From: Okamejei kenojei
Lineage: Eukaryota
Assembly: GCA_035221665.1 (NCBI GenBank)
Contig: CM069147.1
Span: forward strand, 43,958,001-44,022,000
DNA: 64,000 nt
Direction of reading: 5' to 3'
Shown: piece by piece, positions 17,401 through 63,440 of the stretch
Layout of the letters: each line of letters begins with the position of its first letter
Position numbering within the stretch: position 1 is the stretch's first letter
Notes under the pieces: model-generated
What the model saw: only the letters and a program-made list of their open reading frames with translations
Told to the model about the DNA's origin: nothing
The model's database searches: none
Position numbers and translations under genes: made by a program

Positions 17401-17834
17401 AAAGCTCATCATGAACGATGTGTAGTGGATGTAAGGAGCAACTCACCAGCTTTTCCCTCTGCAGATGATGTTGATAACATGTTGGCATGTGACAACAACC
17501 GTAATATAACAAAAGGAGACACAAGTATCAGAAAAGAATTCACAAAAATAAATTTGCCTTTGGTCACAAGTTCTAAAACTGATGCAAGAGTTTTGGTCAC
17601 TGGTTATCCATTTGGCTCCGGGGGTGACTGAGGATGAGGATGTGCACAGTGTGTGGCTGATACCTGAACATGTCTTCAGTGCTGGTGAGAAAAGATGAAG
17701 ATTTTCCCTGCTTAGTGTTTAGAAAACAGATTTTAGGTAACAAAATATTTCACAATGATAGTGGATCTGCTGAAGAATTTCTCATCAATTTTATAATTAT
17801 TAAAAAGGCTCGAGTATTTTGAGTATTCGAGCAC

Positions 17835-18381
17835 ACACTGGAATATTATGTGCAGTTTTGGTCCCCTAATTTGAGGAAGGACTTTCTTGCTATTGAGGGA
17901 GTGCAGCGTAGGTTTACAAGGTTAATTCCCGGGGTGGCGGGACTGTCAAATGCTGTGAGAATGGAATGGCTGGGCTTGTATACTCTGGAGTTTAGAAGGA
18001 TGAGAGGGAATCTAATTGAAACATATAAGACTGTTAAAGGTTTGGATACGCTAGAGGCAGGAAACATGTTCCCGATGTTGGGGGAGTCCAGAACCAGGGG
18101 CCACAGTTTAAGAATGAGGGGTAAGCCATTTATAACGGAGACGAGGAAACACTTTTTCTCACAGAGAGTTGTGAGTCTGTGGAATTCTCTGCCTCGGAGG
18201 CCGGTTCTCTGGATACTTTCAAGAGAGAGCTAGATAGGGCTCTTAAAGATAGCGGAGTCAGGGGATATGGGGAGAAGGCAGGAACGGGGTACTGATTGGG
18301 GATGATCAGCCATGATCACATTGAATGGCTCGAAGGGCCGAATGGCCTACTCCTGCACCTACTGTCTATTATTGTCTATTG
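17835..18381 (+). mobile_element. CR1/HER1-type LINE 3' end, relatively young
   Basis: ORF 17850-18233 (QFWSP..EGVQRRFTRLIPG..LGLYTLEFRRMRGNLIETYK..SRTRGHSL..RKHFFSQRVVSLWNSLP), then 3'UTR and (ATTGTCT)n-like tail. Confidence 0.92.
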
Positions 18382-19111
18382 AGAAATTTCTGCAAATATA
18401 TATAAACAAGTAAACAGCATCTTATTTCAAACATATACAAATCATATTCATTTTAATTAGCCAATAACTTCATCTTAAGTTTTTTTTTCCTTCCAATAAA
18501 AAACTATTAATTTAAATAAGTTTTGTTTGAGTAAATAATTTTAATAAAATATAAATATTTTCCACCATTCAATGAATTCTAGTTGTTTGCTGTGATGTCT
18601 AGATAACACAGTATCAAGTGACGCACTCTCCATTTTATTACAGCTGAAAACAGAATGAATGATTGAACTATAGTTTGTTACACAGACATTTATTTGGGTT
18701 CTTCAATTGTGCATATCATTTAATATGGTCATAGTCTCTTTTGGGATTAAAGGTAAAGAAAAAATACAAAGATTGACAGGTATTCAGAGAGATCATGCAA
18801 ATTTGTCTTCATTTTACATGAGGTTTGGATAAATGTTGAGTAATTTTATGTTTTAATCATGTTATTCAAGAAAAAAATTCCTTTTGAAAATGTGATCTAT
18901 TGCTAAATTCCTAAGGAGCATTGATTGTAATATTTTTTTTTAAATCAACACACCTGTGGTAGGATGTTTTTCCAAATATATTATTTACTACGAGAAAAAT
19001 TCATAAAGTTATTTCAGTAATGTTTTTTTTATGTAAACCAATGGTTACGATGCCTCTGAAATATTGTCCAGGAAGTACTTTGGAAAGTTTGGACATTCTC
19101 GCTCTCTATAT

Positions 19112-19322
19112 AGAAACAAAGAACTGCAGAGGCTGGTTAATACACAAAAAATATTATAAGTGCAGGAGTAACTCGGCAGGTTAGGCAGCATCTCTGGAGA
19201 ACAGGGATAGGTGACGTTTCGGTTCGAGACCATTCTTCAGTCTCATCTCAAATGAAAACACACCTATCCATGTACCCCAGAGATGCTGCCTGACATGCTG
19301 AGTTACTCCAGCACTTTGTGAC
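19112..19322 (-). mobile_element. Penelope-derived short element with degenerate hammerhead motif and fold-back arm
   Basis: Minus strand CTGAAGAATGGTCTCGAACCGAAACGTC at 19213-19240; inverted arm to 19322. Confidence 0.75.
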
Positions 19323-19499
19323 ATTCTCTATACAGCTGGAATGTCAGAGGACAAATCTGAAGCAGAAACCAAAATAAAAGTTTTTATTCCACCTTAGCAT
19401 CCATACTGCTTTCTTCCCTCTCCTTTACCAGTAGGTGCAACCTCAGACAGTGAGTCAATTTCTCAGCCATGAAGCCACTCCAATGATGCACATGCCAAA

Positions 19500-19840
19500 G
19501 ATACAGTTGATTACCACATTGTATACATGGCATTCCAGATGAACAATCTATTAATCCCAACCCACCCTCTCCTTATAACTCTCCATCCCACACTTATGCC
19601 CTCAAACATGCCCACCAACTCCCATGCTGTCTCTTTTTACTATTAGCATATGCTATGTGGGAAATACAGTAACCAAAACGTATTTTGCAATGTGGGTGGA
19701 AACCGGAGCATCCAGAGAACACCCATGCATTACGGAGATAAGGTGCAGAATTCACACAAGGCAGCAACCAAGGCCAGGACTGAACCTGGGTTGTGAATCT
19801 CTGAGGCAGTAGCACTAATAGCTGCACCACTGTGCCATCC
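19500..19840 (-). mobile_element. Diverged V-SINE
   Basis: tgtgggtggaaaccggagcatccagagaacacccatg core and head ending gcaccactgtgcc. Confidence 0.65.
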
Positions 19841-20274
19841 TATCTTGTTCAAGTCCCCGGCATTCATGGTTTTCGGAGACTTGAGCTTATTTTCTTGTCA
19901 ATGCAACTTTAACTGGAAATTAATGGGTCAGCTGAGCACCTGATCACCTGCTGTCAATGTAATTGATCATCCACATATGAGTCTCAGCCTAGCAGCACCA
20001 TTAAAACTGCTCAGCTTTCTCTCTGCTGTGTACAATTAGTGAATGGACTTTCATGTGCGGGAATGGATGGGTCTGGTTTCTCACTTTGCAAAATAAGCCA
20101 TCTCTACCTTCATTCAGAAATTGGTTAATCAAGGTGCATCAGTATCTTACAAAGAAAGATATTTGATCCAAAAGTATTTACATTTATATTCTAAGTAATC
20201 ACTTTTAGTTAAGTGAAATCTTTCTTTTTGTTCTGCCGTACTTTAATTCTCAGTTAGAAATGTAGTTTAGTAAA

Positions 20275-20624
20275 ATTAATTATGAGAGGAATAAATCGGG
20301 TGGACGCACAGAGTTTCTTGCACAGAGAGAACCAGAATCGAGAACCAGAGGGCATCGGTTTACGGTGCAGGGGGAAGGATTTTATAGGAAACTGAGGCAT
20401 AACTTTTTCACGCAAAGGGTGGTGGGTTTATGGAAGGAGCTGCCGGAGGAGATGGTTGAGGCAGGGTTTATCACAACATTTAGGAACCAATTAGACAGGT
20501 ACATGGATAGGACAAGTTTAGAGGGATATGGGCCAAACACAGGCAAGTGGGATTAGTGTAGACGGGACATGTTGGTCGGTTTGGGCAAGTTGGGCTGAAC
20601 TGCCTGTTTCCACACTGTATGACT
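20275..20624 (+). mobile_element. CR1/HER1 LINE 3' end
   Basis: RTRGH..LRHNFFTQRVVGLWKELPEE..FRNQLDRYMD; tail similar to the HE1 SINE tail. Confidence 0.88.
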
Positions 20625-20828: not shown

Positions 20829-21118
20829 GTTTAGTGATACAACATGGAAACAGAACCTTTGGCCTACTGAATCCATGCTGATCATTGATTAGCTGTTCAC
20901 ACCGATTCTATGTTATCCCACTTTCCCATCCATTTCCTGCACACAAGGGCAATTTACCGATTCATCTTGTGTCTTTGGGATGTGGGAGAAAACCAGATGA
21001 AACACATGCTGTTACAGGGAGAAACTCCACATAAACTCCACGCAGACTGTACCAGAGATCAGGGTCAAACCCCACTCTCTGTTGCTGTGAGCTAGCAGCT
21101 CTACCAGCTGCACCATGG
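20829..21118 (-). mobile_element. HE1-type V-SINE (diverged)
   Basis: tttagtgatacaacatggaaacag tail, tctttgggatgtgggagaaaacc core, head at ~21060-21118. Confidence 0.75.
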
Positions 21119-21255
21119 TGTTGATGTATAAATGCCATTAATTAAAAGATTTTCCAATAACATAAAGTTGCGTTTGGTCCTGTAAGTTCACCAATAATGC
21201 GTGAATAATAAATCTTGAATCTGTTTGCATTTAAGCTAGAGTTCCTTATCGAGTT

Positions 21256-21439
21256 TTACTCAAAATGCTGGAGAAACTCAGCGGGTGCAGCAGCATCTAA
21301 GGAGCGAAGGAGATAGGCGACGTTTCGGGTCGAGACCCTTCTTCAGACCTTCGCTCCTTAGATGCTGCTGCACCCGCTGAGTTTCTCCAGCATTTTGTGT
21401 AACCCTCGATTCTCCAGCATCTGCAGTTTCTTCGTTAAC
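21256..21439 (-). mobile_element. Young Penelope-derived fold-back element with intact minimal hammerhead motif
   Basis: Perfect 50-bp inverted repeat 21261-21310/21348-21397; 13-bp TSD TCCTTATCGAGTT at 21243-21255 and 21440-21452. Confidence 0.9.
21319..21346 (-). ncRNA. Minimal type I hammerhead ribozyme motif (predicted)
   Basis: CUGAAGA-A-GGGU(CUCG)ACCC-GAAA-CGUC; stem I AGGU/GCCU; palindromic ACGU in place of stem III. Confidence 0.75.
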
Positions 21440-22020
21440 TCCTTATCGAGTTAGTTGGTATATTCACCCAGTCGATGTTTAACTTATGTTTGACAGAATA
21501 GGCCTACCATATCACAGATTAAGAATTAAATCCAATAAAATGGTTACACAGCATTTTGTGAAATAAATAGTTAAACTTTCTTTACGTGACTTTATACAAC
21601 TTCAACCAACTGCATTGTGCCCCTGTGCTTTATCTGCGCCCACAGTTCACATTGAGTTGATTGAGATGGATTGGCCTGAAATGCACGCAGTTACTTGTGG
21701 GTTGGAGGAGAGCTTGCGGTAAGGAAACCCTCATGGGTCAGCATCTACGTGACTCTCATGCTTGTACATTGCAGTGAAGAAGTGAGACCATGCTGGAGGA
21801 CAGGCGTTGGGACATTTGACCTCTATCCTGAGAGTCACCATGCGGTCGATGGAAGTTCTTGGTGCTGGATACACTTCGTATCTGGCTCCTTATTTTACAT
21901 TTGCTGGCCTGGATGGGAAAGGTGAGCAGTTTTCATTTTGTTAATATTTTAATTAGCAATAACGTTTTAAATTAATTTACATTTTTATTACTCATTATGT
22001 TTTAATTGAAGTATATTTAT

Positions 22021-22277: not shown

Positions 22278-22578
22278 TAGTTTAGTTTAGTTTAGAGATA
22301 CAGCGTGGAAACATGCCCATCAGCCCCATCGAGTCCACACTGACCAGCGGTCCCCGCTCGCTCGCAGTCTCCTACACATTAGGGACGAATTATAATTTTA
22401 TCAAAGCCAATTAACCTACAAAGTTGCACGTCTTTGGAATGTGGGAGGAAACCGGAGCGCCTGGAGAAAACCCACACGGTTACAGGGAGAATGTAAAAAC
22501 TCCGTACAGACAGCACCCGTAGTCAGGATTGAACCCAGCTCTCTGGCGCTGGAAGGCAGCTGCGCCACCGTGCCGCCC
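22278..22578 (-). mobile_element. HE1-type V-SINE, near full length
   Basis: Head GGGCGGCACGGTGGCGCAG, V-domain, (TAAAC)n tail. Confidence 0.9.
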
Positions 22579-23280: not shown

Positions 23281-23545
23281 GTGACCTGGGTTCGATCCTG
23301 ACTGCGGGTGCTGTCTGTATGGAGTTTGTACGTTCTCACCGTGACCGCGTGGGTTTTCTCCGAGATCGTGGGTTTCCTCTCACAATCCAAAGACGTACAG
23401 GTTTGCAGGTTAATTGGCTTGGTATAAATGTAAATGGTCCTCAGTGCGTGTTGGATGGTGTTAATGTGCAGGGATCACTGGGTCAGTGCTGATTCGGTGG
23501 GCCAAAGGGCCTGCTTCTGCGCTGTATCTCTAAACCAAACTAAAC
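23281..23545 (+). mobile_element. HE1-type V-SINE, 5' truncated
   Basis: B-box GGTTCGATCC, V-domain, tail gctgtatctctaaaccaaactaaac. Confidence 0.88.
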
Positions 23546-23876: not shown

Positions 23877-24400
23877 CAATAGACAATAGACAATAGGGGC
23901 AGAAGTAGGCCATTCGGCCCTTTGAGCCAGCACTGCCATGCACTGTGATCATGGCTGATCATCCACAATCAGTACCCTGTTCCTGCCTTCTCCCCATATC
24001 TCTTGACTCCGCTATCTTTAAGAGCTCTATCTTACTCTCTCTTGAAAGCATCCAGAAAATTGGCCTCCACTGCCTTCTGTGGCAGAGAATTCCACAGATT
24101 CACAACCCTCTGGAGAAAAAGTTGTTCCTCATCTCCGTTCTAAATGGCCTACCCCTATTCTTAAACTGTGGCCCCTGGACTCCCCCAACATCGGGAACAT
24201 GTTTCCTGCCTCTAGCTTGTCCAATCCCTTTATAATCTTATATATTTCAATAAGATCCCCTCTCTTCCTTCCAAGTATACAAGCCCAGTCACTCCATTCT
24301 TTCAACATATAACATCCCGAGAATTAACCTCGTGAACCTACGCTGCACTCCCTCAATAGCAAGAATGTCCTTCCCCAAATTTGGAGACCAAAACTGCACT
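23877..24400 (-). mobile_element. CR1/HER1-type LINE 3' end
   Basis: Reverse-complement homologue of 17835-18381 with (AATAGAC)n tail. Confidence 0.9.
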
Positions 24401-24469
24401 CATTCAAATTTGGAGTCCAAAACTGTATCCTGCTTCAAAAGTATCTGCACTCATGTTGATGAAATAAAT

Positions 24470-24782
24470 TTCTCACCTCCCAGTGCCAACCTCTTCTATC
24501 TTCATGACTCCCCCTGCCGGCCTTCTATCCTCCCTGGACTTTTTTATTTCCAACTGTCAATGTGGCATGACACATCTTAATGTCTCCACTCCCCTTACCC
24601 ACTTCAATCTCCCTCTCTCTGAACGCACAACTCTCCACTCACCCAGTAACAATCCCAATTTTGTTATCAAACCTGTATATACATTGAGTCTGACAAAGGG
24701 TCCCGACCCAAAACATCACCTATCCATGTTCTCCACAGATGCTGCCGGAACCATTGAATTACTCCAGCACTTTGCGTCTTTA
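24470..24782 (+). mobile_element. Old Penelope 3' end with degenerate hammerhead motif
   Basis: Pyrimidine-rich segment, then CTGACAAAGGGTCCCGACCCAAAACATC at 24690 and the family tail. Confidence 0.6.
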
Positions 24783-33103: not shown

Positions 33104-33294
33104 GTGTAGGAAGGAACTGCAGATGCTGGTTTACACTAAAGATAGACACAAAATGCTGGTGTAACTCAGCGAGACAGGCAGCATCTCTGGAGAGAAGGAA
33201 TGGGTGATGTTCCAGGTCTGAAACGTCACCCATTCCTTCCCTCCAGGGAGGCTGCCTGTCTCGCTGAGTTACTCCAGCATTTTGTGTCTATCTT
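33104..33294. mobile_element. Penelope-derived fold-back element with the hammerhead core deleted
   Basis: 73-bp inverted arms 33139-33211/33222-33294 with 5 mismatches and a 10-nt loop. Confidence 0.85.
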
Positions 33295-34116
33295 CTATGA
33301 TGCTCAGTTGTTGCCTGTACAGAATTGTGGACCATCTCAATCCTGTTTGTAAAAAGCACACAGAATGTGAGAATTTCAGTTCTGAGGACGACAGAGGAGC
33401 TTTGTTGACTTTTCTCTGTGATGCCGATGTTATGTTGATAATCACATTTTTAGTTTGAGTGTGGCCACCTCAACTGATGTTCTGCAAATTCTTACTGCCT
33501 CAACATGGAGTACAGCATGTATGATTTTTGTGTTCAGGTTTTAAAGGGGGAGACCACTGTACAAGCAACACTCTTCCAACTACTGAGGAATGTTGCAACA
33601 TCATAAATAAATGCTGCAGTTAGGGAGATGATGAGGGATGGGGGGAGAGTCCTAGTGGGTCAAGGAGTCCTTGAGAAGTAGTGAAGATTAATGTCTGCAG
33701 GAGGCATGCACTTTGTCGACATGGTCACACTCCTGGTTGCTGAGGACGTTTCCCTATGGATATGAGTACAATCTCAAATACCTGTACTTTCAAGAAACCT
33801 GCAATGCAAGAAAATACCTGGCTAACCAACTATGCCCCTGGGCTGCAGGCAAAGTAGATGAAATCTCCACTCCTTAAGTGTGCAGTTTGTATAACTTCCC
33901 TATTGTAGCAGTGTGCAGCAACTTATGGTGTGGCAACCTGGAATAATCCTAAAACCGGAAAGCTGATAGTGATCCTGATGTCCATGTTCTAGGCAGTAAT
34001 GAAACGTGTGATGTTGGTTAGGAGGTCAGAAGGCAGCTCGAGTGTTGCCTCTTTAAATTGTGCAATTTCTGGCAAAATGTGTTTGGTAATGCCTAGTTAT
34101 TATTATTTGAGTAGAT

Positions 34117-36524: not shown

Positions 36525-36814
36525 TTTAGGTTTAGTTTAGTGATACAGCGCGGAAACAGACCCTTCGGCCCACCGAGTCCGCACCGACCAGCAATCCCCA
36601 CACATTAACCCCATCCTACACACACTAGGGACAATTACACATACACCAAGCCAATTAACCTATATACCTGTACGTCTTTGGAGTGTGGGAGGAAACCAAA
36701 GATCTCGGAGGAAACCCATGTGGTCACGGGGAGAACGTACAAACTCTGCACAGACAGCACCCGTAGTCGGGATTGAACCCGGGTCTCCGGCGATGCAAGT
36801 GCTGTAACTTCCGC
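36525..36814 (-). mobile_element. HE1-type V-SINE
   Basis: (TTTAG)n tail, V-domain and B-box; followed by a C-rich tract at 36828-36896. Confidence 0.9.
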
Positions 36815-37892: not shown

Positions 37893-38155
37893 GACCTGAA
37901 GAAGGGTCTCAGCCCGAAACGTTCCTACCCTCCAGAGATGCTGCCTTTCCCGCTGAGTTACTCCAGCATTGTGTGTCGACTCACCTATTTGTCCCACCCC
38001 AACCTCTCTTTTACAGCTTTTTCCCACTACTACATTCAGTCTGAAGAAGGTTTCTGAACCGAAACATCACATATCTCTGTCCTCCAAGAATGCTGCCTGA
38101 CCCGCTGAATTATTGCAACATTTTGTGTTTAAAAAAAAAATAGCATCTGCAGTTG
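37893..38155 (+). mobile_element. Tandem pair of Penelope-end hammerhead units
   Basis: Cores at 37896 (GGGT-CTCA-GCCC) and 38041 (GGTT-TCTG-AACC), 145 nt apart. Confidence 0.75.
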
Positions 38156-44077: not shown

Positions 44078-44245
44078 TCTGTTATTTTATATTTCTACAT
44101 CTGTACTATCTTCCCAGATACCACTTTGCTCTTTATATTTGCTGGCCTGCTCATATATGCTATATATTTTAGAACTAAGTCATAATGTTCATCAATATGT
44201 AGTATATGGATTATAAGAAACACACACACACACATTATATTTTAT

Positions 44246-44401
44246 TGAGAAAAGGAATGGGTGAGGTTTCAGCCTAAGGTCTCGACCCCAAACATTACCT
44301 GTTCCTTTTCTCCAGAGATGCTGTTCGACCCACTGAGTTACTCCAGCTTTTTGTGTTCATCTTCGGTTTAAACCGGCATCTGCAGTTCCTTCCTGCACAT
44401 T
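44246..44401 (+). mobile_element. Penelope-derived short element with short inverted 5' arm
   Basis: Family tail ending ggcatctgcagttccttcct; 12-bp TSD ATTATATTTTAT at 44234-44245 and 44402-44413. Confidence 0.8.
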
Positions 44402-45350
44402 ATTATATTTTATGTTGTTTTCTGGATTGGGCTTTCTGAATGACAAATTCCCTCCAATGTTGAAATTAAGTAAATCCATAGAAAGTAGTTCAGCACTTTA
44501 GCCAGCAGTTCCGGCTATTAACACACTTGTAAAATCACTATTACCATACATAACACCTGAGTACGGTGGCATGATTGATGGCACAAAAGTAACCTATTTG
44601 ACCATTTTCCAGGAAGCTCTCACCTGCCTTCTCTAATCAAGTTGTATCAAGTCTAGAAATATTTTGAGCATGTACTATAGTCAATTGATCAACAGCCCCA
44701 TTGCCTGAAGCAATGCTTGGATATAGTTCAAGCTCATTATACCCATAATTTCAGATCTTGTACAAAATAAAGGCAGTTCCAACAGCTTTGGCTGATAGAT
44801 TGATCTGCAATGTAATTTAAAGTTTCAGACTTTGTGTTCCCACTGCAGGTCAAAGGAACCCGGTTGTAAATAATTGCTGGGATAACCCTTAATTCTTTAA
44901 GTGGTTATTTGAGGCGTGACCGACCGGTGAGGCTACAGCTGTAATATAAAAAGCAAAGGCATTGAATCATAAACTTGGATTATTCTTAATCTGAGATTTG
45001 TATGTCTTTCTTATGTTTATCTTAACAATGAAAAATGCAAACAAACAAATTGGGTTGAGTGAAAACTTAGAAATAGGTTACGACTGAATTGCAGATTTGG
45101 TTCAGTTTATGTTTTTAGATGGGATGTTAAACTTCTTTAGTCTTATTCACATGGGGATAATTAATTATGCTGATCTCATTTACATATCCTTAACATTTAA
45201 AAATAAAATCTTAGAACAAGTAAATGTTTTTTTTAATTAATTATCCTCACTGCTTGGATTATTTCATGGGCAGGATATCTTAGCATCATTAGTTATGCTC
45301 TCTCTAAAACACTCTCTCTAGTTTTAAAACCATTTTACATTCAGGTGGAG

Positions 45351-45438
45351 GGTTACACAAAATGCTGGAGAAACTCAGCGGGTGCAGCAGCATCTAAGGA
45401 GCGAAGGAGATAGGCGACGTTTCGGGTCGAGACCCTTC
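45351..45438 (-). mobile_element. Very young Penelope-derived short element
   Basis: 45358-45440 is identical to 21261-21343 (83 nt); 16-bp perfect TSD TTACATTCAGGTGGAG at 45335-45350 and 45439-45454. Confidence 0.92.
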
Positions 45439-46239
45439 TTACATTCAGGTGGAGCTTGTTTGCTCAGCTATGGTATAACTGATTTAATAAGTTTTTAATG
45501 TGATATAAAAGTGGTGATGTAAAGCCCACCTCATTTTAATAGCTGATATGAAAACCTTTAATTAACTAAAGTTGACAAATTCTGCCTTTAGTTATCACCT
45601 TCTGGCATCCAGCAGAATCTGTTTAAAATTCTGTAAATTCAATTCACTAAAAATGCACAATACTAGTAATATTATGAATGAGCTAAGATGCTAATTTTCA
45701 CAATCCTGCAGCACATTTTCCTTACAATATTGATATAAGATATATGCTTTTGATTGCTTCAGGTTCCTTTCCACTCTCTCCAAAGAGATTGCTTTACATA
45801 GGTTGTGTACTCAACATTGAATTGGTCTGCAAAAATATTTTGCTGATTTTGCAATTTATTTCTGCACTTTCAGCTAGATATATGATTAATAGGGAATATC
45901 ATGTACAGTGCACCATCTCCCTATAATGTCTTAAGGAGCCAAACAAGATAGTGTTCTGCAGAAATGTGTATAATAATTAGATCCGTTAGCAACTATGTAC
46001 ATCTTCGTGCATAAACTACTGGAAACAATTTTCAGTAAATTTTACTTCTATTTTAATATTTTGTAATATTTATTGTCCATATCACATTTTTCACTCTCAC
46101 GCAATTTGTTTGATCATATTTGTTAATACAACGATGCTGACGCATATATGTTGTGCTAATATCTATTCAACTGACTGAATAGATTATTTCTCTTAAATGC
46201 AAGTTTAAATGTTATAAAGAATGTCAAATAATTAAAATT

Positions 46240-51738: not shown

Positions 51739-53183
51739 TGCAGAAAATAAACACCGCGTGAGCATGTTTGAAATTTAAATTGCTTAAGAAAAGATTATGA
51801 AAAACTATGCTGATGATTATTGGCAATGAGTAAAACCCCATCTGACATAACGCACTGTGGATCGGAAAGGGGCATCAGACAAGATGTCATCCATCAGGGC
51901 TGCAACCACCAGCTGGCTATTGCCGATCTGTTTCCGCTTGCAGTAGTTATCCCACTGAAGGAAAATCTCTAAACAAGGCTGTGAATTGGTTTTCATGCTT
52001 GCATTGACAGATTGGAAAAGCAGTTTGTTCTACCAAATTTAACAATGATATATCATTATCACAACTTTGGGAGAAATCTATAAAATCAATAAGTTTGTAG
52101 CCTAACTAGGATTTGTATTGCTTACATGCTGAGCTTCTGTCAAAGTAAAAGTGTATAGATTGAGTCACAGGCAGATCAATGGCATTTGTGGACACTAAGC
52201 TCAATAACAACCCTTCTGAAAAGAAATAGATGTAAAAAGCAAATTTACTAGGAAAAATAGCTAATATCCTTTCTGTTTGTAGCTGAAGCACTTTTCTGCC
52301 GCTATTGGCGCTGGCAGCTCTAATGCTTGCATCGTATGTGCTTGCCATTCCGAGTGTTACTGCTGTTTTAGATTCTTGCTCTCTGTGTACACTTGAATGC
52401 TCCCATTTGCCGGGCTTGTAGGAAACTGGCCAAGAGAAAAAAAGGGCCTTTATTGTAAATTGAATAAAATCCTCAGCCTCACGAAACTAGGCAGCTTTTA
52501 TATACTTTGTACTGGCAAGGATTGCTAATGGAGAAAAATAAAGACATGTAATTAAATAGTTTAATGAATTTGTATGTCTTTTGTTTGAGTGTGACGTGGA
52601 ATGTGTGGGGCTGCAGGGTGACACAAAGAACTTGGCTGGTACTAAGTAACGTAGGAAATTTGTTCTTTGAATGATACCAAAGGTTTTTATACTTCATTAT
52701 CACAGCATGCGAAATTGCTTGTAGTAAATGATTTGGATTTTTTCCTTGATTAAACAAAAGAAGCATTCAGTCCCCAGATTGTATTTTTCTCCGCAGAAGA
52801 CAATAAATCAGGTCTTTTTTTTCTGTGGTGCCATGACTGTGAATGCTCAGATGTTAGTGATTTTTATTTTAAAAATCTTCCAGTGAATATGTTACTTTCC
52901 ATTCAAATGATAAATATAGATAATTTATATATTTTTTTATTTTTTAACTTAATTAATTTATTTCAGCATCTTGCTGTTCATTTTCTGGTAGCTCAAAGTC
53001 TTGCAGTCAGTGGGCTATTTAAAAAAAAATAATGCATGAGTTTTCAAATGATCAATTGGAATTGAACATCATTTTCTATCTGTTGAAGTGCGTTTGCACC
53101 TTGTGAAGTCGTTCAGTTTGGTCCCTTACATTTTGCTTGCTGACCTTTCCACTTAACTGCTTGAGGTTTCTTAAGTTGCACAC

Positions 53184-53274
53184 TCTAAGGAGCGAAGGTC
53201 TGAAGAAAGGTCTCGACCCAAACGTCCCTAATCTCCTTCGCTCCTAGATGCTGCTGCACCCGCTGGTTTCTCCA
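53184..53274 (+). mobile_element. Penelope-derived fold-back element, same subfamily as 21256-21439
   Basis: TCTAAGGAGCGAAGG-T-CTGAAGA..GTC..CCTTCGCTCC-TAGATGCTGCTGCACCCGCTG. Confidence 0.85.
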
Positions 53275-53533
53275 TGATCAGGTATAATTTTTAAAAAGCT
53301 CAAATCGTCCCAATTGGAAGAACATCATTTTCTATCTACTGGTTTTAATTAAACTGATAATGTAGAAAAAAATACTTTGTATTGAAACTCTCATACAGCA
53401 CACAGGTAAGACGATGGTTCCTTATTTAATTAAGTTGAACCAATAAGAAATTGATTCATTTTGTATCTTCAAGGAAATTAGGAATGAGTCATTCCTTACT
53501 AGTCCAACAACCTGTTATGCTATTCCATGGTAA

Positions 53534-54030: not shown

Positions 54031-54814
54031 AAAGAATATACTGGATAACCTAGCCGGATAATGAATGGTTCTATCTTGTCCTTGTGACTGCGGGATTGTT
54101 ATCAGTAGCAAAGGTGAATGATTTTCACTGATAGTACTTATATCAGGTCATCTTTTGAATTAGGCTCAGAGCCCACCTATACACACAGGCAATATGATTT
54201 AGCCTTGTTGAAGTGTAAAGATATTCCCACTGCATCAGGTAAGATCTGCCGCTTACATGGATTTTTCTTGGGCAACAGGAAGAATATAAATATGCAGCAT
54301 AGAATAAAGGCCAGGCACCTTTGCCACCCACAACCTTTTCTTTTCATGATGAGACCTTTTTAATCTTTTTTTTCACTCCAAACTCATACCCTTCTATCCT
54401 TTAATAAATCACGAATTGATCCAATTCCCCTGTGAATGGTTCAATGAGGTCAGTATTTACTGCCGCAGGTGCCAGTCTATTTCATAAGGCAATGATTCTA
54501 ATCGACTTTATTTCAGATGCTAAGTCATAATGCGGTATTCAAATTATTTTTTGATATTCCCTGATTTTGTTGTTTGCATTCCCTTAAGAAAGCACACCTT
54601 GCATTCACTGTATTTTTCTAGCAGTTTGATTGCAATTATATAAACATTTTAAAGACACTTATTTAATAAGGTTTAATTTACTTAATGCCTCTCCAAAAGC
54701 AGAATCTTGATGGTGCAAAACAAGCTGTATCAAAATGGCTGCCTGCAACGCACTCAATCCATCGACCGACATTGAGAGATATTAACAAACATTGATACAT
54801 GTTACAGTTGAGAT

Positions 54815-55259
54815 AATAGACACAAAAAGCTGGAGTAACTCAGCGGGCCAGGCAACATTTCTGGAGAGAAGGAATGGGTGATGTTTCGGGTCGAGACCCT
54901 TTTCAGACTGATGTCAGGGGAGTGGGCGGTACAGAGATAAAATCGAAACTTTGGATAAAATGTAGTCAGAGACAGTAAGACTGGTGGGAGAACTGGGAAG
55001 GGGGAGGGGATGGAGGGAGAGGGAAAGCAAGGGCTACTTGAAGTTAGAAATGTCAATGTTCATACCACTGGGGTGTAAGCTGCCCAAGTGAAATATGAGG
55101 TGCTGCTCCTCCAATTTGCTCTGGGCCTCACTCTGACAATGGATGAGGCCCAGGTCAGTGTGGGAGGGGGCGTTCAAGTGTTGAGCAACCAGGAGATCAG
55201 GTAGGTTTAGGCGGACTGAGCGGAGGTGTTCAGCGAAACGATCGCCGAGCCTGCGTTTG
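54815..55259 (-). mobile_element. Penelope-like element 3' fragment: GIY-YIG endonuclease C-terminus plus hammerhead-bearing terminal repeat
   Basis: TKRRLGDRFAEHLRSV..VAQHLN..EEQHLIFHLGSLHPSGMNIDISNFK; decayed hammerhead at 54880-54906; 14-bp TSD with 2 mismatches at 54801-54814/55260-55273. Confidence 0.9.
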
Positions 55260-55839
55260 GTTGCAGTTGATATGATTGGATATTGGGAGGGGAACATGCA
55301 GATGGCAGGTACTTGTGTGCCATTTTAGTATGAGCAGCAAAGATGAAGTTTACCCCAGAGCCTTGTAGTTTTTTCCACTCCCTGCGTATCTTGCACATTA
55401 TGAACACACTAGCACAGAGCATTCACTGGAGCTTTATCAGGCAATAAAATAGTATGGATCTGTCACTGTGTTGAACTGACCCTTATCAAAGTCAGTGTTA
55501 ACATTCTGGGTGACTGTGATTATGGTAAGTAATCTCCTCACATCATCTCAGCTCAAAAACGTAAGTCTGACCATCTTTGGAGGAGTTCTTTTGAATATGC
55601 CTATTATACACATGAGAGCATATTCATTTGCCTTCAAAATAACTATTGGGAAGCGAGTGTGCTTCGACTGCACTCCATATCACATATGAAAGCTTCCATC
55701 CATTGATGAAACATTCATTGGACAGTACGGCCAGCATTTATAGCCCATCCCAAGTTTCAGAAGATTCTAGTGAGGGGCCTTTTTGATTTACCAGACTCTA
55801 TACAATGAAATTATTCGCAGGATGATTGGCCATTCATGG

Positions 55840-56950
55840 AGCATAGAACAGGACAGCACAGGAACTGGTCCTGCAAACTACAATATCTGTGCTGAAGATG
55901 ATGCCACAATAAACTAACCTCAACTGCCAACACGTATTCTATTTTTCTCCATTCCCCACATATTCATGTGCCCATCCAAAAGCCTCTGAAATGCCCCATC
56001 TTATGTGCCCCCACCACAACTGCAGGCAGCACATTACAGGCACTCCACATGCTATGTGTTAAAACCTTGCCCTGCACATCTTTAAACTTTGCCCCTCTCA
56101 CCTTAAAACTATGCCCTCTAGTCTTTGACATTTCCACTCTGGGAAAAAGGTTCTGACTGTCTCCCCCATCTAAGTGTCCTATAATTTTATATACTTCTAT
56201 CAGATCCCCCTCAACACCCTGTATTCCAGAGAAATTCATCCAAGTTTGCACAACCTCCCCTTGTAGCCGACACCTCCTAATCCAGGCAGCATTCAAGTAG
56301 AGTCTGAAGAAGGATCTCGACCCGAAACGTCACCCATTCCTTCTCTCCACAGATGCTGCCTGTCCCGCTGAGTTATTCCAGCATTTTGTGTCTATCTGCA
56401 GCATTCTAGTAAACCTCCTCTGCTCCTTCTCCAATGCCTTTGCATCCTTCGTGAAATGGGCTGACCAGAATTGCACCCAATATTTCCAAACACGGCCTAA
56501 CTAATGTCTTAAGAAACCGCAACATGAATTCCTGACTCATACTCAGTGCCCCAACCAATGAAGGCAAACTCTACATATTCATTCCTTCTACTTGTGTTAC
56601 CTGATAAATCAGCCATGATTGAATGGCGGAATAGACTTTATGGGCCGAATAGCCTTATTATGGTCCAAGAACTTATGAACCTACCACTTTTTGGGATCTT
56701 TGGGCCTAGATCCCAAGAGCCCTCTGCACATCAATGCGGTTAAGGGTTTTGCCATTAACATATTCTTTCCCCTTTAATTCCACCTTGCAAAGTCTAACAC
56801 CTCACACTTGCCCACATTTAATTCCATCTGCCATTTCTCTGCCAATATCTGTGGTTGCTCCATGTCCCTCTGTATAGTTTGACAGCCACTGTCCACAATT
56901 CCCGGCAATCTTACCAAATAACTAACTGACCCTATATATTTACATCCATG
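55840..56950 (-). mobile_element. CR1/HER1 LINE 3' portion with nested insertions
   Basis: ORF 55964-56296 GDLIEVYKII..NLFPRVEMSKTRGHSFKVRG; continues beyond 56412. Confidence 0.85.
56300..56397 (+). mobile_element. Penelope-derived hammerhead element nested in CR1
   Basis: CTGAAGAAGGATCTCGACCCGAAACGTC at 56304-56331; 14-bp TSD GCAGCATTC(A/T)AGTA at 56286-56299/56398-56411. Confidence 0.88.
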
Positions 56951-58531: not shown

Positions 58532-58971
58532 GTTTAGTTTAGTTTCGAGATACAGCGTGGAAACAGGCCCTTCGGCCAACCGAGCCTGCACCGACCAGCG
58601 ATCCCCGCCAACTAGTTTTGTCCTTCACACTGGGAACAATTTACATAAGCCGATTAACTTACAAACCTGTTCAAGAAGGAACTGCAGATGCTGGAAAATC
58701 GAAGGTAGACAAAAATGGGTGGAGAAACTCAGCGGGTAAGGCAGCATCTATGGAGCGAAGGAAATAGGCGACGTTTCGGGTTGAGACCCTTCTTCAGACA
58801 AGCCTGACTTACAAACTTACAAACCTGAACCTCTTTCGAATGTGTTGGAGGAAACTGGAGCAACCAATGTGTTCACATGGCGATCATACAAAAGCCATAC
58901 AGGCAGCACCCATAGTCAGGATCGCTGGTGCTGTAAGGCAGCAACTCTACCGCTGTGCAACTGTGCCACCC
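58532..58971 (-). mobile_element. HE1-type V-SINE interrupted by a Penelope-derived element
   Basis: Tail at 58532, head ending actgtgccaccc at 58971, insert at 58670-58799. Confidence 0.85.
58670..58799 (-). mobile_element. Penelope-derived element with intact hammerhead core
   Basis: CTGAAGAAGGGTCTCAACCCGAAACGTC (minus strand, 58770-58797); TSD AACTTACAAACCTG at 58656-58669/58814-58827. Confidence 0.88.
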
Positions 58972-59770: not shown

Positions 59771-61051
59771 AATAGGTTGTTAATTATGATGTGTCAATTA
59801 TGCCTGTTGGACTGATTCTAATTGTTCATATGGAAACAGGTGCTCGGATTATGGACAAAAATCTAACTGCATCAGTTAGTTCACCGAAAACGTCTCGAGC
59901 AAAACCGCCAGCAGATGTGGTTGGAATGGCTTAATAAAAATATATACTTACAAGTTAATTCATTTGTAATCAGAAGAGGTATATACTCAGTTGAGTCCTG
60001 GGATGGGCTAGGTTGTCGATGGCTTAGTACTATTAGCACTGGGATACAAAGATGGCCAGATGGGCTGACCCATCTGAATGATGGCACCATAAATGGTGGT
60101 GCTCGCATGTGTAATATATGCAAAAAGAATTTCACTGTGCAGTTGCATATGTGACAAATAAAACACTATTGACTATTATTAATTTATTATTCTTCCAGTT
60201 TGTTTCCCGGCAGAGTGGGGAATGCGCCATTTCATGTATTGCTGTGATCCAAAGAAGAATGCAGATGTTGGACAAGTGGGAAACGTCCACTTAGAAAACT
60301 ATAGAGAAAGAACCGTGAAGGATGATCAGTTCCTTCAGGATGGAAATCTCTCAAATGCTGAGCATGTTTAACACCAACCATTGGACTCTTCCATGTTTAA
60401 GAGCTAACTGTTTTTAATCACACTGAGATTTTGTCAACTCTCGATAAATAAAGATGTACCTTAGTCCCTTGGATCTGACATAAATTTCTTTAGATGCCAT
60501 TTATTTTAGATTGTCTCTCTGTGGGTTTTTACTTCATATGAAGCAGTGTGCCTGCTGCTATTTTAAGGAGTTGTATGGGAATTCAATACCTGGTGGAGGA
60601 ATAATGACCATAAGCTAGTCAGTGAGACTAAGTGAACTTGCACAGGTGCAAAAGAGGGTGTTTCCCTTGTTAGAATTGTGGTTGAAGAATTGCTGAATGA
60701 CTGCTCTGAAGATTCTGTGAGCACATAAACAGTCCAATTCATTACCAACCATAACAACTAAGAGGATCCCAACCCAAATGCATACTTTCCACTGTTAGTT
60801 ATCTCAGTCCAAATATTGGAGGAGCACTATCGTTTATCTCACTGTCCTACAGCTTAAAGATGAGGGAAAATTAGCCAAAGTTTTAATCCTAGCCTGGCCA
60901 CCCTAGATGTCTCCCCAAATCTGCTTCCAGTAACAGTTGTGGAAGAATTGAATTGGAATAGTCTTAAAACAGGTGCAATTGGCAATCATCTTCAGAGATA
61001 TCGCAGTGGATGTTGGTGTTAAGAAGGAGAAAGAGACTGAACATTAGAAGG

Positions 61052-61216
61052 TGGGGGAGGGTGGGGGAGGGGAGGGGGGGCGAGCGATCTTCTTTACGCC
61101 CCCCCCCACCCTCACATCAGTCTGAAGAAGGGTTTTGACCCGAAACGTTGCCTATTTCCTTCGCTCCATAGATGCTGCCTCACCCGCTGGGTTTCTCCAG
61201 CATTTTTGTCTAACTT
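61052..61216 (+). mobile_element. Penelope-derived hammerhead element with G-rich/C-rich 5' fold-back
   Basis: CTGAAGAAGGGTTTTGACCCGAAACGTT at 61122-61149; perfect 14-bp TSD TGAACATTAGAAGG at 61038-61051/61217-61230. Confidence 0.88.
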
Positions 61217-61312
61217 TGAACATTAGAAGGGCTGGGATTGTGGGTGGTCTTTAATCACAGTTGGGGAAAGTAGGGGTATTATATAGTTTACTGAGTCAAA
61301 CTGACCTTTTAA

Positions 61313-63009: not shown

Positions 63010-63440
63010 TGGAGACCCATGGACTGTTTCATTGAACACTTGCACTTGATCTGCCAAGGCATGCTGGATCTCCTGTTGTTAGCCATTTTAACTCCCCTTC
63101 CCATTCCTACACTGATTTTTCTGTCCTGGGCCTCCTCACTGCCAGAGTGAAACCACACGCAAACTGAAGGAACGGCACCTCATATTCTGCTTGGGCAGCT
63201 TACTACCCATTAAACTAAACATTGAATTCTACAATTTTAGGTAACCCCCCCTCCTTTCCTTCCACCCTCTTTTCTTTCCCCCTTCCCCAAACTCTGGGTG
63301 CACATCCATGTATCTGACTATCCCACTCCCCTCCCCCTTCCATGTATATCCCTCCCTCTGCCTTCATATTTCACCCCTCTCTACTTACCTAATGCCTTTT
63401 TGCCTTCTTTTCATCTCTAGCCATTGTCCACCCATCTGCC
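63010..63440 (+). mobile_element. Penelope-like element GIY-YIG C-terminal fragment (frameshifted) and 3'UTR
   Basis: CFIEHL..HFNSPSHSYTDFSVLGLL..CQSETTRKLKERHLIFCLGSLLPIKLNIEFYNFR*; homologous to 55034-55259. Confidence 0.85.

Follow-up and report, generated by a model that had tools for sequence, protein, structure and literature searches.

The 184-bp insert at 21256-21439 of the window, the whole 64-kb stretch of DNA that was analysed, is very probably a recent and severely 5′-truncated insertion of a Neptune-type, endonuclease-containing (EN+) Penelope-like element (PLE). In this insertion, two pLTR 3′ ends lie head to head and a hammerhead ribozyme is carried as a passenger. The TSD, the two overlapping element 3′ ends, the one-ended tail, the membership of a repeat family and the link of that family to an endonuclease ORF are all observed directly. 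The insert is a further example of the known hammerhead-bearing, inverted-pLTR kind of PLE insertion. What it adds is a very abundant (19 loci in 64 kb), still recently active hammerhead-bearing PLE family in what is, to judge by protein similarities alone, probably a skate or ray.

Anatomy of the hairpin and its hammerhead core

A sequence-only reading of this DNA had described perfect 50-bp arms around a minus-strand hammerhead motif, cut between 21319 and 21318, in an element flanked by a 13-bp TSD. These features were confirmed, and the insertion is composed of the following parts (positions are those of the window).

21243-21255, no strand: left TSD, 13 bp, a direct repeat matching 21440-21452
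21256-21439: insert between the TSDs, 184 bp
21256-21347, minus strand (element sense): pLTR segment 1, 92 nt, from just 5′ of the hammerhead core to a tail-less 3′ end
21261-21310, no strand: left arm of the perfect 50-bp inverted repeat
21311-21347: loop between the arms, 37 nt
21319-21346, minus strand: minimal type I hammerhead core, C3 to C17, with an extra A after A9, a 4-bp stem II and ACGU replacing stem III
21348-21397, no strand: right arm of the perfect 50-bp inverted repeat
21348-21439, plus strand (element sense): pLTR segment 2, 92 nt, 5′-truncated 8 nt past the cleavage site, with no hammerhead and with a tail at its end
21403-21439, plus strand: optional 3′ tail, approximately 37 nt, at the end of segment 2 only
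21440-21452, no strand: right TSD, 13 bp, a direct repeat matching 21243-21255

The arms were complementary at 50 of 50 positions, the first outward mismatch being 21260/21398. Both strands form the same long hairpin, with a folding z of approximately -15 for each. An exact flanking repeat of at least 12 nt was found at only one of 600 random 200-bp intervals, as compared with 6 of 20 family intervals that were positioned by eye, in which the repeats were 12-18 bp long. Both halves of the insert are 92 nt, placing the junction at the exact midpoint of 21256-21439. This is probably due to chance, since other fold-backs have unequal lengths.

The catalytic core, CUGANGA ... GAAA ... UH, is complete in the minus-strand loop. 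On this strand, C3 is 21346, A9 is 21340 and the extra A is 21339. Stem II consists of 4 bp between 21338-21335 and 21330-21327, of which G21338-C21327 is G10.1-C11.1. G12 to A15.1 correspond to 21326-21323, the palindromic ACGU of 15.2-16.2 occupies 21323-21320 and has no monomeric helix III, and C17 is 21319, which places the predicted scission between 21319 and 21318. A minimal-hammerhead descriptor matched the window four times versus one match summed over 200 dinucleotide shuffles. Rfam yielded no match in the window at the gathering score. By E-value, 11 hits covered the element, none to a hammerhead family, all being sub-threshold matches to hairpin-shaped miRNA and cis-regulatory models. 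The miRNA-like matches reflect the long hairpin only, and the missing hammerhead match is likely explained by models that expect full helices I and III.

The core resembles the minimal hammerheads of metazoan PLE pLTRs as these are described by Cervera and de la Pena 2014 (PMC4209133). Specifically, it shares their type I topology, full catalytic core, extra nucleotide between 9 and 10.1, G10.1-C11.1 pair, palindromic 15.2-16.2, short helix I and lack of a real helix III. The earlier reading was thus right to assign the motif to the minimal type I hammerheads of Penelope-type elements, and the palindromic stem III and the additional nucleotide following A9 on which it remarked are both features that the paper gives for this class. 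Many dispersed single copies are common to the published set and to ours, and opposite-strand motif pairs also appear in that paper. Helix II is 4 bp in the element versus 7-8 bp in S. mansoni and 6 bp in D. virilis, while the native helix I of the family is 2 bp, as in D. virilis (PMC4209133). To our knowledge, cartilaginous fishes are not named in that paper, and one unnamed chondrichthyan is included in a screen for tandem retrozymes (bioRxiv 10.64898/2026.07.22.740005). Our literature search, in which queries on sharks gave mainly unrelated papers, returned no paper on hammerhead ribozymes in elasmobranch retrotransposons; the family may already be listed in the supplements of PMC4209133 or of the retrozyme preprint, or in Repbase/Dfam.

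A repeat family linked to a GIY-YIG endonuclease

Using a profile search with a 93-nt unit, the approximately 90-nt pLTR unit was found as 23 segments at 19 loci in the 64 kb, with E-values from 1e-25 to 0.75, such that the weakest few segments are doubtful. The motif is a high-copy repeat, a point absent from the earlier reading. The copies and related fragments that bear on the element are as follows.

45335-45454, minus strand: sister copy of the same young subfamily and the closest copy, with no inversion, 5′-truncated inside the hammerhead core, 16-bp TSD
19092-19328, no strand: older fold-back with another junction, a tail at one end and a broken stem II (2 of 4 pairs)
33110-33297, no strand: older fold-back with 77-nt arms 2 nt apart, a junction that deletes the CUGA half of the hammerhead and a tail at one end
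44234-44413, plus strand: copy with a short inverted 5′ piece, 12-bp TSD, 5′ half of the hammerhead lost
53064-53337, plus strand: indel-rich insertion with the same junction as the element, 15 nt of arm left, 18-bp flanking repeat (27-29 bp with an indel)
54810-55282, minus strand: longer family copy with the C-terminal end of a GIY-YIG endonuclease ORF, a 3′ UTR and then the hammerhead/pLTR unit
63057-63244, plus strand: second endonuclease C-terminus fragment, frameshifted

The sister copy was identical to the element at 83 of 83 nt (45358-45440), in keeping with the earlier description of the insertion as young, non-coding and flanked by a TSD. Approximately 90% identity and 14-bp TSDs were found for the copies at 58656-58827 and 61038-61230. 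Based on the identical, uninverted sister and these copies, the subfamily is young and mostly inserted without this fold-back. The tail at 21403-21439 also occurs in the copy at 58670-58706 and, more weakly, in other copies. In the copy at 61038-61230, the 5′ approximately 40 nt are G-rich and resemble an inverted piece of the pyrimidine-rich UTR, as in a non-overlapping inversion.

The longer copy at 54810-55282 connects the pLTR unit to a coding sequence. Its ORF stops at 55037-55039, and approximately 130 nt of pyrimidine-rich 3′ UTR precede the pLTR unit (54810-54908), which was identical to the element at 72 of 86 aligned nt, as for a sister subfamily. The young-type copy at 61052-61216 retains the same upstream UTR end as this ORF-linked copy. 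The placement of the pLTR 3′ of an ORF ending in GIY-YIG is seen via the sister copy at 54810-55282, the element at 21256-21439 itself having no ORF. The 64-kb window holds no full-length autonomous element, the two endonuclease fragments being the only ones in it.

The 81-aa ORF fragment of 54810-55282 matched four proteins in a protein search, three of them from skates or rays at 62-68% identity. The fragment had no Pfam match of its own, and GIY-YIG was annotated in 21-23% of the members of its top two Atlas clusters. In the Mobula homologue, P0002, a YIDD motif of RT and a CX4CxxC linker are present, and its end is of GIY-YIG type, with a weak Pfam GIY-YIG match; searching with it gave 85 relatives of at least 740 aa, mostly RT-bearing ORFs. 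P0005, which was 41% identical to the window fragment over 73 aa, has DKG, YIDD and CX4CxxC motifs together with RVT_1 and GIY-YIG matches. The GIY-YIG matches of P0001, P0002 and P0005 fall below the Pfam cut-off, and only that of P0011 passes. A PDB search with the full-length relative P0005 found nothing. To judge from these similarities, the element at 21256-21439 is a terminal-repeat piece of an RT- and GIY-YIG-encoding Penelope-like family.

The homologues P0001, P0002 and P0005 carry a CX2-5CxxC linker between RT and endonuclease, which would lie upstream of the window fragment. Because a Cys linker is described as marking Neptune and Nematis (PMC8557442) and the groups described from vertebrates are Neptune and Poseidon (bioRxiv 10.64898/2026.07.22.740005), Neptune is favoured. 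It is the likely clade, on the strength of the relatives' linker, a feature common to Nematis, rather than of a tree. The insertion differs from the Neptune/Nematis description in that the linker and RT lie outside the window and no microsatellite targeting was seen at this site.

Conservation was evaluated among 13 of the 19 sense segments spanning C3-C17, six being omitted as truncated, junction-broken or too diverged. The 11 core positions carried the majority base in 135 of 143 cells, versus 605 of 741 downstream, a count that is biased by the choice of copies with a recognisable core and that speaks across subfamilies rather than for the element at 21256-21439. These data suggest conservation of the core in different subfamilies, which would be expected if the ribozyme is required by master elements. 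The extra A after A9 was present in 13 of the 13 copies counted, and the family stem I beside the core was 2 bp, with G-C in 11 of 13 and U-A or U-G in 11 of 13. Covariation in helices I and II was not significant: over 14 copies, 87.8% of the cells were paired, a value that 44 of 500 shuffles reached; the changes comprised one double-sided change and a U-A/U-G switch in helix I.

Several short copies start at G-U just before C3 (5′ ends at 21347-21348, 58799 and 56302). The cleavage site itself is approximately 29 nt downstream of these starts. The native upstream context (54906-54930, 61100-61122 and 38025-38041) is a pyrimidine tract ending in CAG, which, placed before C3, we take to resemble a 3′ splice site or initiator consensus. 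In D. virilis Penelope, the end of an intron is mapped to the 5′ end of helix I (PMC4209133).

Origin of the head-to-head arrangement

The 50-bp arms are the overlap of two 92-nt element 3′ ends. PLE insertions are described as typically combining a TSD with a 5′-truncated copy in inverted orientation and, at one end, a tail of 30-40 bp (PMC8557442, PMC3846280, PMC8969392), the tail being described as optional (PMC8557442, PMC11167929). The element has every part of this EN+ anatomy: 5′ truncation, an inverted pLTR, a tail of this length at one end and a TSD. It thus resembles the inverted-pLTR insertions described for A. vaga Pen2a (PMC3846280) and by Craig et al. 2021 (PMC8557442), in which an inverted 5′-truncated copy abuts a direct pLTR, with an optional 30-40 bp one-ended tail and a TSD. 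It differs from the Pen2a-type insertions (PMC3846280) in being 184 bp of pLTR only, devoid of ORF or internal sequence. Its 13-bp TSD, and those of 12-18 bp at 6 of 20 family intervals, compare with 8-10 bp in the rotifer examples of that paper. The hairpin looks like an ordinary by-product of insertion, not a device that boosts the ribozyme.

In the mechanism that we propose, the element protein would nick both target strands, 13 nt apart. Each 3′-OH would then prime RT on the element RNA, one at the tail-less start and the other at the tail end, and the 3′ ends of the two resulting 92-nt cDNAs would be linked through microhomology of 1 nt. The minimal hammerhead is the pLTR ribozyme that this family ordinarily carries and comes from the master element, in which it would cut tandem transcripts as a double hammerhead. 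We give this origin by two nicks, two primers and joined cDNAs about an even chance. It recalls LINE-1 twin priming, in which both target ends prime RT and the inversion lies within the TSD. In LINE-1, the segments do not overlap, whereas those of the element overlap by 50 bp and both start at element 3′ ends.

In published in vitro work (PMC11167929), both target strands were cut and then extended by the purified PLE protein of an anole, for which a dimer is predicted. Its RT began at two positions, one on each border of the tail, and these start sites were not homologous to the target. At the left target end of the element, 6 nt (within 21248-21255) are homologous to the element at the tail-less RT start. 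This homology fits target priming, yet departs from the non-homology reported in vitro. At the sister copy, the target end shares 3 nt of microhomology (45348-45350) at the same tail-less RT start. Craig et al. 2021 ascribe the tail to endonuclease resolution of an intermediate (PMC8557442); the structure of the element may also have arisen in this way, or through copying from an already inverted master. The many short TSD-flanked fold-backs with one tailed and one tail-less end are material for testing, on a genome-wide scale, both-strand priming at the two RT start sites seen in vitro as the source of inverted pLTRs.

Three other routes were considered and rejected. Snapping back of a single cDNA was ruled out, as the half with the tail lacks the hammerhead and the half with the hammerhead lacks the tail. 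Splicing does not explain the junction, no GT or GC donor following the arm end. A MITE or other DNA transposon was rejected because the arms lie internally and represent copies of a retroelement 3′ end with unequal ends, and because TSDs vary in length.

All three long-armed fold-backs, the element and those at 19092 and 33110, have a tail at one end only, and their junctions all differ. The inversion junction destroyed the hammerhead in 33110-33297 and in 44234-44413. Based on the differing junctions and the ribozyme loss at 33110 and 44234, inversions are frequent and indifferent to the hammerhead.

It is unlikely that the hairpin itself transposes as a non-autonomous unit, that is, that a fold-back master was transcribed and recopied by the PLE protein to give a fixed-junction subfamily. 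The subfamily is very young, non-autonomous PLE derivatives have been published (PMC8557442, bioRxiv 10.64898/2026.07.22.740005), and the 21347/21348 junction is seen again at 53197/53198, a recurrence that just 1 nt of microhomology would have to explain. However, the sister at 45335-45454 is identical yet uninverted, the junctions of the other fold-backs differ from this one, and the copy at 53082-53310 has five single-base indels and one substitution in 95 columns. The segment with the identical junction spans 53184-53274 within 53064-53337, and a 102-nt unique part of 53082-53310 outside the family sequence aligns weakly to the left flank of the element at 21256-21439. The alignment score was reached by 1 of 2000 local shuffles, 0 of 1970 real windows and 31 of 60 window-wide shuffles; the likeness, noticed post hoc, is thus significant locally and not window-wide. 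This copy may derive from the 21243-21452 locus or from the assembly. One possibility is that it represents another member of a hairpin subfamily, the other that it is a degraded echo of the 21243-21452 locus with its loop flipped; 53064-53337 as a whole is possibly an assembly artefact or a templated copy with the loop flipped.

The same look-alike suggests noisy sequence in the window, and palindromes are error-prone in assemblies. Nevertheless, an artefact as the source of the perfect palindrome at 21261-21397 is scarcely credible: the insertion has a clean 13-bp TSD, a one-sided tail and a mismatch just outside the arms, and older, diverged fold-backs share its anatomy.

The element had also been called retrozyme-like. 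Indeed, animal non-LTR retrozymes as described (PMC7229834, bioRxiv 10.64898/2026.07.22.740005) are likewise short, non-coding and pLTR-derived, with a type I hammerhead and a long TSD. However, they are head-to-tail tandems with a hammerhead, mostly canonical, in each unit and a circular RNA, whereas the head-to-head element contains a single minimal hammerhead. The element is overlapped by no tandem array, and the two or more head-to-tail hammerhead units of a retrozyme are absent there. The label does not hold, because its definition needs tandem repeats with a hammerhead per unit, whereas the repeat of the element is inverted and its hammerhead is single. Two same-strand neighbours, the only ones at a distance of 143 nt (37896 and 38039), are old and at another locus. 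They form a partial tandem of two direct-orientation copies (37896-38150), the first lacking stem I and the second lacking the palindrome.

Predicted folding of the hammerhead and surroundings of the element

The sequence-only reading had proposed that the fold-back supplies and greatly extends stem I and may thereby stabilise the ribozyme. We evaluated this using nearest-neighbour folding predictions, which ignore tertiary contacts and help from protein. Relative to stem I, the pairing of the perfect arm is shifted by 7 nt, with the innermost arm pair closing at +9 after the cleavage site and not at +2. The junction permits a 4-bp proximal stem I, as compared with the family norm of 2 bp, but the same G-G-A bases are occupied by the perfect arm. 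In the partition function, the four proximal stem I pairs had P = 0.0 and stem II approximately 0.005, versus at least 0.995 for the arm register, and the hammerhead-compatible monomer ensemble had P of approximately 3e-5. The arms thus do not supply stem I in these predictions.

The hammerhead fold lay 6.4 kcal/mol above the monomer ensemble with the arms and 4.0 kcal/mol above it when the 5′ arm was trimmed to 6 nt. For the uninverted copies at 58797 and 61122, the corresponding values were 3.8-7.4 kcal/mol in three contexts. Therefore, nothing is gained from the arms, and intact uninverted copies fold little better. With the arms, the double hammerhead cost +14.1 kcal/mol relative to two hairpin monomers and +17.2 kcal/mol relative to the best dimer, versus +1.7 to +4.3 kcal/mol in armless constructs; this comparison is rough, setting explicit single structures against MFEs, and the armless constructs are shorter. 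The 4-bp stem I alone reduced the cost of the double hammerhead from +4.3 to +1.7 kcal/mol, a gain of 2.6 kcal/mol. Thus, the proposed stabilisation found no support in the monomer or dimer models.

Based on these models, we infer that the monomer would not cleave and that the dimer would cleave poorly, and the hammerhead at this locus is probably a silent passenger. Dimer cleavage of PLE hammerheads is reportedly the subject of Lunse et al. 2017. For S. mansoni, a single minimal hammerhead is described as uncleaved and dimers as weakly cleaved (PMC4209133), and among Xenopus dimer elements, one of nine was cleaved and eight of nine were inactive (bioRxiv 10.64898/2026.07.22.740005). The anole PLE hammerhead is reported to need protein to cleave (PMC11167929); by analogy, folding of naked RNA may understate the activity.

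An active ribozyme arising from the extension of stem I, as the sequence-only reading envisaged, for example with the arms of two molecules forming an intermolecular stem I and releasing unit-length or circular RNA, is highly improbable. Nothing in the core, stem II or palindrome is damaged, it is possible to draw a nested dimer in which two hammerheads form with their arms swapped, and the four proximal stem I pairs in place of two account for the lower cost noted above. The cost of the double hammerhead with the arms present and the small hammerhead-compatible share of the monomer ensemble nevertheless oppose it. In addition, one cut by a single hammerhead cannot free a unit or circle, and stem II is broken in the same-strand copy that lies nearest (19240).

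A related scheme is a self-propagating, pLTR-only hairpin subfamily that a Neptune protein would mobilise and whose inverted arms would gate the hammerhead: off in the monomer and on, with protein, in an arm-swapped double hammerhead. We consider it very unlikely. If true, it would represent a new regulation of minimal hammerheads and a new type of non-autonomous element, a head-to-head counterpart of retrozymes, of which our literature search found no description.

The locus could instead matter to the host as a source of dsRNA. Read-through transcription of either strand would provide a hairpin with 50 perfect base pairs, and its dicing or editing would contribute to silencing of the family. 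The same long hairpin is predicted for both strands, and rotifer PLE copies are reported to yield antisense small RNAs (PMC3846280). However, dsRNA is a side effect common to any inverted repeat, and no host gene was identified around the element by Pfam, PDB, Atlas or protein search, such that this role is distinctly unlikely. Specifically, 27 candidate ORFs or exons and three earlier ones gave no convincing Pfam match. For the exon-like stretch at approximately 21776-21922, PDB yielded nothing, the best Atlas value was 0.81, and the protein search returned 11 candidates, none scoring. This stretch and another at 21647-21718 lie on the plus strand, 200-500 nt to the right of the element, and have good acceptor and donor signals, with a TGA just upstream in their most coding-like frame; neither had a homologue in the frames that were searched.

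Other repeats surround the element. Degraded ORF pieces at 17823-18230, 20266-20553, 23909-24577 and 55967-56329 resemble 3′ ends of LINEs of the CR1/L2 type; for 17823-18230, Pfam gave a weak, unrelated match only. A dispersed repeat family is present at 19681-19834, 20971-21120, 22395-22541, 23283-23429 and 36660-36800, and we assume that its members resemble vertebrate V-SINE/HE1 elements.
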